From Octopus vulgaris (taxonomy: Eukaryota): a stretch of DNA of 64,000 bases. Location: NCBI GenBank assembly GCA_951406725.2, contig OX597828.1, positions 51,894,001 through 51,958,000 of the forward strand, read 5' to 3'. Positions 8,848 to 30,168 of this stretch are shown here, one piece after another. The notes beneath the pieces are model-generated. The model was not told the origin of the DNA. It saw only the letters and a program-made list of their open reading frames with translations, and searched no databases. The translations under genes were made by a program, and so were the position numbers. Position 1 is the stretch's first letter, and each line of letters opens with the position of its first letter.

Positions 8848-9458
8848 GGCGGCGAGGTGGCAGAAAGGTTAGCATGCCGGGCGAAGTGCGTAGCCGTATT
8901 TCATCTGCCGTTACGAACTGAGTTCAAATTCCGCTGAGGTCAATTTGCCTCTCATCCTTTCGGGGTCGATAAATTAAATACCAGTTACGCTCTGGGGTCG
9001 ATGTAATCGACTTAATCCGTTTGTCTGTCCTTGTTTGTCCCCTCTGTGTTCAGTCCCTTGTGGGTAGTAAAGAAATAGGTATTTCGTCTGCCGCTACGTT
9101 CTGAGTTATTCCGCCGAGGTCGACTCAGCCTTTCATCATTTCAGGGTCGATTAAATAAGTACCAGTTACGCACTGGTGTCGATATAATCGACTTAATCCC
9201 TTTGTCTGTCCTTGTTTGTCCCCTCTATGTTTAGCCCCTTGTGGGCAATAAAGAAATAAGAAACGTTAGCATGCCAGAAGAAGTTCTTAACTGTATTTTG
9301 CCCGTCACTACGTTCCGAGTTCAAATTCCGCTGAGGTCGACTTTGCCTTTCATCCTTGCGGGGTTCATAAATTAAGTGCCAGTTGCGTACTGGGGTCGGA
9401 CAAATCGCCTGGCCTCCTCCCCACCCCCAAATTTCAGGCCTTGTGCCTATAGTAGAAT
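8848..9458 (+). mobile_element. Head-to-tail trimer of SINE family B
   Basis: Units 8848-9077, 9078-9258 and 9259-9458, each with gagttcaaattccg..gaggtcgac..gcctttcatcc..ggggtcgataaattaagtaccag. The first two end ...aaagaaata; the third ends aggccttgtgcctatagtagaa. Confidence 0.88.
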
Positions 9459-21171: not shown

Positions 21172-21215
<44 letters not shown>

Positions 21216-21438
21216 TCAATATAGGGTGGCAAAAAAAATTTTGTAGAATTCTTTTGCCACCAGCGGCCTAGTAGGAAAAAATTAAAATAGTCATAGACCA
21301 TTTTTAAGTTCAACATCAACAATAAAGGAACGGCCATAATAGGCCATTCACCCACTAGAAATAACAGCCAAAGCTTCAACCGCAAATAAAAGTTAATTCA
21401 GTAAACCAGGAGAAAATTTAAAAAACATTTACCCTGTA

Positions 21439-21545
21439 ATTTCTTATACGATATACCGTTTCATCTGCTGATTAATGGTAAACTAACCTGATTAAATTAA
21501 ATCAAGCCAATCTTCCACAGGCCCTCAGATTCTTCAGTAAGAAAT
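21439..21545 (-). ncRNA. Type I hammerhead ribozyme (copy 1)
   Basis: Exact reverse complement of 22142-22248. Confidence 0.82.
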
Positions 21546-22141
21546 AGCCCAAGACGGAACAGATATTTTCACGAGGCATTTCCGACGTTGCCAAGTTTAT
21601 ATCTGACCTAAAATTTTCAAATCGTCGCACTCGCGCCAAATTTATCGGCAGCAAATAAATATAAGCCGTCGATTCCATTACGGAATTAACCAGAAAATTC
21701 ATAATTAATCAATATAGGGTGGCAAAAAAATTTTGTAGAATTCTTTTGCCACCAGCGGCCTAGTAGGAAAAAATTAAAATAGTCATAGACCATTTTTAAG
21801 TTCAACATCAACAATAAAGGAACGGCCATAACAGGCCATTCACCCACTAGAAATAACAGCCAAAGCTTCAATTGTTGATGTTGAACTTAAAAATGGTCTA
21901 TGACTATTTTAATTTTTTCCTACTAGGCCGCTGGTGGCAAAAGAATTCTACAAAATTTTTTTTGCCACCCTATATTGATTAATTATGAATTTTCTGGTTA
22001 ATTCCGTAATGGAATCGACGGCTTATATTTATTTGCTGCCGATAAATTTGGCGCGAGTGCGACGATTTGAAAATTTTAGGTCAGATATAAACTTGGCAAC
22101 GTCGGAAATGCCTCGTGAAAATATCTGTTCCGTCTTGGGCT

Positions 22142-22248
22142 ATTTCTTACTGAAGAATCTGAGGGCCTGTGGAAGATTGGCTTGATTTAATTTAATCAGG
22201 TTAGTTTACCATTAATCAGCAGATGAAACGGTATATCGTATAAGAAAT
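22142..22248 (+). ncRNA. Type I hammerhead ribozyme (copy 2), extended stem II
   Basis: Stem I atttctta (22142-49) / taagaaat (22241-48); CUGAAGA 22150-56; stem II atctg/cagat enclosing a G-U-rich hairpin; GAAA 22225-28; near-palindromic stem III acggtatatcgt; GUA triplet, cleavage predicted after 22240. Confidence 0.85.
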
Positions 22249-22368
22249 TACAGGGTAAATGTTTTTTAAATTTTCTCCTGGTTTACTGAATTAACTTTTA
22301 TTTGCGGTTGAAGCTTTGGCTGTTATTTCTAGTGGGTGAATGGCCTATTATGGCCGTTCCTTTATTGT

Positions 22369-22485
<117 letters not shown>

Positions 22486-28644: not shown

Positions 28645-28812
28645 GGGGTCGATACAGCTTGGCACCTGTGACGTCGCGACTCATTTCTACAGCTGGTTGA
28701 ACTGGAGCAACGTGAAATAAAGTGTCTTGCTCAAGAACACAACACGCAGCCCCATCCGGGATTCATACTCACTACTTCACGATCGTAAGCTCCACGCACT
28801 AACCACTGGTCA
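28645..28812 (-). mobile_element. SINE family D, 5' half
   Basis: Homology to 50546-50712. Confidence 0.75.
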
Positions 28813-29259
28813 AGTCAATAAACATCTTTAAAAGACCTTTGCATTTTCAAATTATCTTCCCTATATATTTTCACTCGTGCGATACCTTGCAAGTTTACTT
28901 TGTTTTATAGATATATATGGTAGTTTGTTCCTGTCCGGCGGTCATGAACAAGAGCGATATGCCTTTAAGTGGCTATATAAACCGATCCTTGACGCTTCAG
29001 GGTTTTCCTTACTGTATGCACTCAAAGTGTGTGGGGGGGGGTGTCTGTTCTGCGCAACCTGATTCCACCCTTTAGACAATAATTCCTAGCGGTTGAGCAG
29101 ACTAAGACGGTTGCTGTGACAAACAAGTTATTGGTTTTACATTGGAGAAATCTTCTCTCGGGTGAATTGCCTCACAGGCTACAAAGCTCCACCAATCTTG
29201 GAGTTCTGGGAAAATTGCCAAAGTGTGCACCGAGGGACTTTACTCTTTGGTTTGCTGTC

Positions 29260-29853
29260 AAGTTTTGCATTCGGTACAATTTTGTTTATTTTAGTAGTTT
29301 TTACCGCAAGGGTCCCTCCTAGCGTGCAGTATCTATGAATAGTAGTACCCTCTATTAATATAAATAAATTTTTTCAAAGTGGAAAAATTTACACATTTTT
29401 TCTCTTACGAGGTTTTTCACGCTAACTACTGATAATTTCTTATAAAGATTTTATCCTCAATTTTAAATTTATATTTTTCACCGGAATAGTTCAATACTGA
29501 AATTTTGTTCCGAGTAAGCAATTTGGTACCGAAATGCATTGCGAATAATTCGCCATTTTCATAGATATGTAAAGATAAACATTCGTACATGCTACGACGA
29601 ATTCTACGGTTGACTGTCGGGTTTGTAATGTTATGTTTTTTCTTATATGTCTTGAGTTTGTTGCACTGATGAGCATAGAATGCATATTCTGCATTAATTG
29701 CGAAATCACAGGTGATATGTAACTAAATTCTTTTTTTTAAATGACTTGCTTTGAAGTTTTGCATTCGGTACAATTTTGTTTATTTTAGTTTTGACCGCAA
29801 GGGTCCCTCCTAGCGTGCGGTATCTATGAATAGTAGTACCCTCTATTAATATA
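29260..29853 (+). mobile_element. Second hammerhead-containing ~494-bp unit with ~100-bp terminal direct repeat (retrozyme / Penelope-like pLTR)
   Basis: aagttttgcattcggtacaattttg...gtaccctctattaatata at 29260-29362 and again at 29754-29853, where it runs into (TA)n. Confidence 0.78.
29660..29723 (+). ncRNA. Type I hammerhead ribozyme
   Basis: Stem I gttgca/tgtaac; CUGAUGA 29666-72; stem II gca...tgc; GAAA 29702-05; stem III tcac-ag-gtga; AUA triplet, cleavage predicted after 29717. Confidence 0.82.
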
Positions 29854-29870
29854 TATATATATATATATAG

Positions 29871-30117
29871 TGGGGGCGCGTGGCTTATTGGTTAGGGTGT
29901 TGAACTCATGATCGTAAGGTGGTGGCTTCGATTCCTGGACCGGATGATGTGTTGTGTTCTTGAGCAAAGCACTTCATTTTCACGTTGCTCCAGTCCACTC
30001 AGCTGGCAAAACTGAGTAATCCTGCGACGGACCGGCGTCCCGTCCAGGTGTAGAATTTCTCCGCCACTGAAACCGTGAAACCGGCCCTTATGAGCCTGGC
30101 ATGGCTCGAGAAGGAAC

Positions 30118-30118
<1 letters not shown>
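29871..30118 (+). mobile_element. SINE family D head with tail type 3
   Basis: Tail cctgcgacggaccggcgtcccgtccagg...atgagcctggcatggctcgagaaggaac is shared with 59452-59550. Confidence 0.8.

Positions 30119-30168
<50 letters not shown>

Follow-up and report, generated by a model that had tools for sequence, protein, structure and literature searches.

We consider it highly probable that the hammerhead-bearing repeat at 29260-29853 of the window (by which we mean the whole 64,000-nt stretch of Octopus vulgaris contig OX597828.1 analysed here) is a 5'-truncated, non-coding 494-bp hammerhead repeat, i.e. a non-LTR retrozyme, written into a (TA)n tract by the GIY-YIG endonuclease and reverse transcriptase (RT) of a Penelope-like element (PLE) acting in trans. 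The source genome is large (2.8 Gb) and rich in microsatellites. We call the family to which the repeat belongs family A and number its unit from c1, the first base past the predicted ribozyme cut (29718 in the window). The relevant features of the window are the following:

28900..29259, no strand assigned: unrelated old dispersed repeat in the 5' flank, outside the element; its best other copies are 66-78% identical over most of their length
29252..29259, plus strand: 5' junction, where host TTGCTGTC is similar to unit TTGCTTTG; the aligned relative of the flanking repeat has GACTTGCT
29260..29853, plus strand: family A insertion, a single 5'-truncated arm of 1.2 units running from c37 to c494 and then from c1 to about c141
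29260..29359, plus strand: first copy of the terminal redundancy (about 100 bp), with an unused start site 1 inside (ACCCT at 29347-29351)
29453..29474, plus strand: start site 2, ATCCTCAATTTTAAATTTATAT (c230-251), skipped by the window copy; the 3' end in 37 of 86 family A arms
29660..29723, plus strand: type I hammerhead, core CTGATGA at 29666-29672, predicted cut after 29717 (AUA)
29754..29850, plus strand: second copy of the terminal redundancy; it stops at start site 1 (ACCCT at 29838-29842, c~124-141), where 42 of 86 arms have their 3' end
about 29849..29870, no strand assigned: (TA)n target tract, into which the 3' end of the window copy runs
21208..22372, no single strand: family B, two head-to-head arms, the minus arm from c68 to c238 and the plus arm from c124 to c132, with hammerhead cores at 21537 (minus) and 22150 (plus)

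The direct repeats of about 100 bp, 494 bp apart, that the first-pass annotation described are present. Positions 29252-29295 recur at 29746-29789 with a spacing of 494 and 95% identity, and 29295-29382 at 29786-29873 with a spacing of 491 and 90% identity, the drop after the first 44 nt being due to 3 nt that the second copy lacks. The claimed end of the unit in (TA)n agrees with a junction at about 29849-29870. No target-site duplication was seen at the window copy; insertions within (TA)n mask such duplications. Microhomology was likely used for the 5' join, since host TTGCTGTC resembles unit TTGCTTTG and the flank relative reads GACTTGCT. The stretch upstream of this join (28880-29259) was considered as the body of the element and rejected, as it is an old, unrelated repeat. 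The window copy differs by about 8 near-private substitutions per 458 nt and, with its single hammerhead, would be unable to release unit-length RNA alone; one ribozyme and these substitutions are our reasons for regarding it as an aged, ordinary dead-end insertion. A very abundant SINE-like repeat lies in inverted copies on either side of the element (29871-30120, plus strand; about 28650-28810, minus strand). These copies may be tRNA-SINEs; ARAGORN found no tRNA in them. A two-copy tandem repeat of 181 bp occupies 8896-9258 of the window.

The canonical hammerhead proposed for 29660-29723 was recovered by a descriptor scan, at the sequence level, as a type I motif with an intact core. Stem I is GTTGCA/TGTAAC (6 bp), stem II is GCA/TGC, lengthened by ATGCA/TGCAT and followed by GAAA, and stem III is TCAC/GTGA. 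In the whole window the descriptor finds three sites, i.e. this motif and the two of the 21-kb element, and its strict form finds none in 30 shuffles. An Rfam scan of the window at the gathering score gave no match, the hits of RF00163 in the genome belonged for the most part to other families with short stems, and the minimum-energy fold of the isolated motif differs from the hammerhead fold (z -1.3; -8.4 kcal/mol for the hammerhead fold versus -15.3). A sister family, A', which is 74-83% identical to A and has a 497-bp period, keeps the core, has AUC as its cut triplet, and differs from A in stem II by two double changes (C-G to U-A and A-U to G-C). Across A and A', 91% of the cells pair, compared with 16-45% in slid controls, and this covariation amounts to 2-3 events rather than 15, because all of it stems from one split between two families. 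Subfamilies of A differ at, among other places, the free core position 7 and loop III, and in one of them G10.1-C11.1 has become A-C. The compensatory changes in stem II and the kept core of A' indicate selection on the predicted ribozyme fold of family A. Among published retrozymes, eight of nine predicted dimers failed to cleave in vitro (Li, Clavereau and Pollet 2026, bioRxiv 10.64898/2026.07.22.740005).

The genome search yielded at least 91 family A matches from the best 40 of 2294 first-look candidates, and an exact pattern of the 32-nt ribozyme occurs at 27 further places in the genome (reversed control: 0). After removal of six duplicates and of one locus with the same flanks, the set comprises 61 distinct loci with 86 arms, which are best-scoring hits or exact pattern matches and not a random sample. 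Units measured from cut to cut span 486-499 bp (n=23, the duplicate-flank locus counted). The unit has 31% GC and no coding frame was found in it (the longest ATG frame of the doubled unit is 29 aa on the plus and 67 aa on the minus strand), nor was any PLE protein match found in the window. Family A has the short, low-GC (<45-50%), non-coding tandem units in many copies, without LTR, and the type I hammerhead with intact core in each repeat unit that define non-LTR retrozymes. The number of hammerheads that the definition asks for is present in 9 of the 61 loci; the window copy, with one, falls short of it. The earlier suggestion of a family of ribozyme-bearing repeats of about 0.5 kb is thus borne out by a dispersed, non-coding family with a fixed unit of about 494 nt. 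Among contigs matching family A, seven runs guessed to be RNA and one unlabelled run cover parts of the unit; joints in these contigs that go back by 489-494 nt say nothing of expression, cutting or circles, because genomic tandems produce them as well.

The unit could instead be only the pseudo-LTR (pLTR), i.e. the 3' end, of a long autonomous PLE, of which the copies would be 5'-truncated ends. PLE pLTRs do hold hammerheads (PMC4209133), and a contrast family in the same genome, with a CCAC-CTGAAGA hammerhead (L271-L282, L348-L350), does have a common upstream body of more than 1.5 kb, and of 3.2 kb in one pair. Upstream of a full family A unit, by contrast, there is either a further unit (up to 2.7 units in L016) or host DNA; no unique upstream body was found in the 61 loci, and among the 5' flanks (300 nt) of single-arm loci common sequence was seen in three pairs only, in no case abutting both junctions. 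Likewise, the PLE protein hit just 9 of 133 loci of families A, A', B and C, in scattered fragments, which include the PLE loci through which two were found. The first-pass annotation had itself named the tail of a long autonomous element as the case that would speak against its reading, and this case is absent, as upstream sequence is always another unit or host DNA. We regard this alternative as largely refuted and leave it very little probability.

The manner in which family A copies end is more informative for our preferred reading, that of a retrozyme mobilised by a PLE. The 3' ends of the 86 arms fall at site 1 in 42 cases (c136-160, about c146), at site 2 in 37 cases (c240-256, about c251) and elsewhere in only seven. 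The two sites lie about 105 nt apart. All of the 79 site ends except one enter (TA)n, in line with the proposed targeting of TA repeats. Head-to-head insertions with two arms make up 25 of the 61 loci, and wherever both ends of such an insertion lie at a site the two arms use different sites (20 of 20; P~1e-6 against even, independent choice). From our reading of the tables the same rule holds in family B (6 of 6 insertions in which both ends can be seen), in family C (7 of 7) and in the autonomous PLE (1 of 1, L096). The 5' ends, on the other hand, are spread from c1 to c445. A shared gaag(c/t)ttt start, which had been claimed for this unit and the 21-kb unit, was rejected as a chance truncation point, since it lies 37 nt past the cut here and 68 nt past it in the 21-kb arm.

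The end motif accct..tat does recur in both units as had been described, and more generally CCT followed by an AT-rich run precedes all six ends of families A, B and C as well as the second end of the autonomous PLE. CCT is found 24-5 nt from the junction at 9 of 16 family-level ends compared with 142 of 747 background (TA)8 junctions, two further ends that could not be extracted having been dropped. Leaving out A and B, in which the motif was first noticed, and the B-like family D, a weak signal persists (5 of 11, P 0.04).

This anatomy also disposes of a satellite, or a tandem duplication at the DNA level, in which the ribozyme would be a chance or dead look-alike. Expansion by unequal crossing-over has been discussed for retrozymes (Li et al. 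2026), and the window is without Rfam hit, as such a look-alike would be. Fixed 3' ends, variable 5' truncation, head-to-head arms and TA targeting refute it, and the compensatory ribozyme changes and the lack of descriptor hits in shuffled DNA also stand against it. PLE insertions are marked by partial tandems, an inverted 5' copy and a one-ended tail (Craig 2021, PMC8557442; Arkhipova 2013, PMC3846280), and a tail on one of two inverted arms has already been described in them (same sources). Family A shows the partial tandem with the inverted 5' arm and an optional 3' tail that results from two start sites. A PLE protein has been reported to prime internally at two RNA sites on AT-rich DNA and on both strands, the gap between the sites giving the tail, and is predicted to be a dimer (Frangieh 2024, PMC11167929).

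We envisage the following series of events for a PLE-mobilised retrozyme. Multi-unit copies would be transcribed and their RNA cut by the hammerhead at unit intervals. The PLE protein would nick (TA)n and prime within the RNA, each cut strand using one of sites 1 and 2. Reverse copying could then run backwards beyond the length of a unit, and the cDNA end may be joined through microhomology. As for the RNA template, the odds between a circle and a cut linear multimer are about even, and both may serve. A stricter claim is that the template of every insertion was a covalently closed RNA circle of 494 nt, on which reverse transcription rolled round from both cut strands. This claim is a serious contender to which we give somewhat less than an even chance. 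It would account for the arrays of family B, with five or more full units per arm, for the insertion-wide variants common to units and arms in that family (T239C at one locus, A451G at another), and for the finding that just one pair of loci has two differences between first and second repeat in common. Folded as circles, A, B and C give stable structures (z -5.2, -4.6 and -4.4), and retrozyme circles have been shown in coral, mussel and axolotl (Cervera and de la Pena 2020, PMC7229834). However, read-through of a homogeneous parent array yields the same sharing of variants, and the anole PLE favoured uncut RNA in vitro (Frangieh 2024).

The 5' ends of arms speak against an exclusive use of circles, as they cluster just 3' of the cut, where the 5' end of a cut linear RNA is predicted. 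Of 25 short family A arms, nine stop 5-22 nt past the cut, where 1.4 would be expected; in family C, two arms start exactly at it. A count of 6 of 54 family C arms at the cut carries no weight here, being inflated by TA microhomology, which also renders two of four inspected stops of that family ambiguous. Stops near the cut fit the 5' end of a cut RNA, but equally a stalling at the U-tract or at the ribozyme fold. Repeats within a family A locus differ by 2.3-2.8% compared with 7.9% between loci, the differences seem to be private to a locus, and 14 locus-private alleles recur in both copies within their locus. This homogeneity within loci, together with the insertion-wide variants of family B, fits either a circle or a homogeneous parent array.

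Candidate enzymes are present in the genome, which contains many GIY-YIG frames. Among them are intact RT-GIY-YIG frames of 781 aa with a CX4CXXC linker (PF00078 at E 1e-6, just under its cut-off; PF01541 over its cut-off), which lie in 4.7-kb elements with (TA)n ends at two sites 40 nt apart. These frames are probably Neptune/Nematis-like, judging from the description in Craig 2021. No autonomous PLE that shares DNA with the family A unit was found in 50 PLE loci (30 from the GIY-YIG set and 20 extended), most of which belong to one PLE family, and a profile run against one PLE end did not match the unit. The single hit in this search turned out to be a separate insertion of A' and was discarded as a parent. 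The PLE partner of family A is only inferred because of this lack of common DNA, and the tail of the local PLE (40 nt) is shorter than that of family A (about 105 nt).

Several observations on these PLEs may be added. In the pLTR of the 781-aa PLE (L094:5640-5700) a hammerhead-like stretch is seen by eye, with the core TTGATAA (a U3-A8 variant) and a palindromic CATG stem III. In several copies among L091-L102 the start of the RT frame is overlapped by a second, upstream open frame of 330-480 codons, perhaps a first exon, perhaps an upstream ORF. The CCAC-CTGAAGA element is young and long, its two 3' ends lie about 85 nt from each other, and its examined stretches yielded no RT frame. An RT fragment with a YRDD motif, possibly of another PLE clade, adjoins it (L272:2419-3219, plus strand). 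An open frame at L350:395-946 (plus strand) includes a stretch that presumably resembles a Cys-loop ligand-gated ion channel exon.

The 21-kb element was described beforehand as a unit of like size and little other similarity, and both statements hold. Its period is 492-493 bp (units of family B 491-495 bp, ends c132 and c238), and BLAST, alignment and profile searches gave nothing significant between A and B (global alignment z 2.2, reached by 4 of 200 shuffles). We see in this a weak hint, at most, of their homology. A third unit of 494 bp turned up fortuitously in DNA flanking a PLE locus, its size being disregarded:

L106:826-1725 (G000:C4:176463219-176464124), minus strand: family C, hammerhead unit of 494 bp, the third of this size; the basal pair of stem II is A-C or bulged

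Copies of family C have units of 485-498 bp, with ends at c145 and c239. Other hammerhead units measure 366, 378, 456, 466-475 and 596 bp, each from one or two loci. Units of 493-495 bp are thus found in three of eight families, two of the three having been selected for size. The earlier idea of a constrained length stands for A, B and C (493-495 bp) and A' (497 bp), and fails for the five other units (366-596 bp). Unit length is conserved within a lineage and clustered in three families, and is no genome-wide rule. A period of 957/1099 at L189 was dropped as unreliable. The end of family D (466-475 bp; L160:1-640) shows a GGTGG...CCACC hairpin followed by CTATAT, similar to site 2 of family B (window 21220-21270), and BLAST gave no match between the two; the end of family M (596-bp unit, L278, minus strand) resembles site 2 of family C (CCT..ATTGCTTAGTA).

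It appears doubtful to us that A, B and C have a common 494-nt retrozyme ancestor, from which they would have diverged past recognition in sequence while structure or enzyme geometry fixed the size and the spacing of the start sites. The units of 494, 493, 494 and 497 bp (A'), the ends at c146/251, c132/238 and c145/239, each after CCT and an AT-rich run, the in-register global alignments (z 2.2, 1.5 and 1.8) and the chance discovery of C are what one would expect from such a descent. None of these alignments is significant, however; the A+A' profile misses B and reaches C at E 2.3 only, the pairing of A and B was made on size in the first place, five further units have other lengths, and C has 107 bp (73%) in common with the 378-bp family E instead. 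Less likely still is a size class, in which A/A', B and C are unrelated in sequence and held at 493-497 nt with the same geometry by a dimeric Penelope RT that engages a single RNA at both its sites and copies it from the two strands of the same break. The geometry of such a class would be the ribozyme cut, followed by RT start sites at about 140 and about 245 nt, each after CCT, and if it were true the size and tail of retrozymes would be a molecular ruler of the enzyme.

In a random survey of 100 evenly spaced 10-kb stretches of the genome, 11 strict hammerheads were found. All of them lay in the first 600 kb (shuffled 600 kb: 0), and none in the 400 kb surveyed with fewer TA tracts; only one trustworthy period, 366, was found among them. 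Eleven strict hammerheads per Mb would scale to tens of thousands in the whole genome.

By every feature testable here, and as far as sequence allows us to judge, family A belongs to the animal non-LTR retrozymes and not to the autonomous PLEs. Like the metazoan retrozymes of Cervera and de la Pena (2020) and Li et al. (2026), it consists of AT-rich, non-coding tandem units with one type I hammerhead each and without LTR. Its 494 bp exceed the 170-400 nt given in the former account and fall inside the 51-972 bp range of the latter. A target-site duplication, when present, is to be longer than 4 bp according to the retrozyme-defining papers (PMC7229834 / bioRxiv 10.64898/2026.07.22.740005). Two fixed start sites and strict (TA)n targeting do not figure in the available text of these accounts, whereas family A has both. 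Circles have been shown for published retrozymes (PMC7229834), whereas the cut of the family A ribozyme is predicted, from DNA alone. Metazoan retrozymes co-occur with PLEs and have been proposed to be moved by them (both accounts); in Xenopus, 24 of 57 retrozyme families match known elements, nearly all of them PLEs (PMC7229834 / bioRxiv 10.64898/2026.07.22.740005). Unlike retrozymes with homology to PLE pLTRs, family A had no pLTR homologue in the 50 PLE loci, mostly of one family. Octopus retrozymes or a 494-nt class were not found in the literature covered, which lay outside Repbase and the subscription journals. Family A appears to be new; its kind, non-LTR retrozymes as non-autonomous partners of PLEs, is already known.

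With endonuclease-bearing (EN+) PLEs, as portrayed in the parts of Arkhipova 2013, Craig 2021 and Frangieh 2024 drawn upon here, family A shares AT-rich or (TA)n targets, microhomology joins and a type I hammerhead. It differs from them in the lack of an ORF, so that no RT and GIY-YIG frame lies between pLTRs and the whole unit is the repeat, in its longer tail of about 105 nt (93-106 in A, B and C) versus 30-40 bp, and in a hammerhead with helix I of 6 bp and helix III of 4 bp in contrast to the minimal hammerheads found in PLEs of animals. A further comparison is with non-autonomous members of the Chlamys PLEs, e.g. MRC1 (Craig 2021). These, too, are non-coding PLE derivatives; they have pLTRs and insert as multiple head-to-tail copies. 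In contrast to family A they share 3' sequence with their autonomous families, for which we found no counterpart in family A, and they belong to a clade without canonical hammerheads. Both retrozyme accounts leave open which enzyme mobilises animal retrozymes and what template it copies. The octopus families carry a clean PLE footprint of two start sites, a single site being used by each arm wherever this could be scored. They also have cDNA ends at the ribozyme cut, and these ends and the two start sites provide exact coordinates for the established in vitro PLE system. What is noteworthy in comparison with the known systems is how cleanly the two-site rule holds, how long the tail is, and that three unalignable families have an unexplained size and geometry in common.
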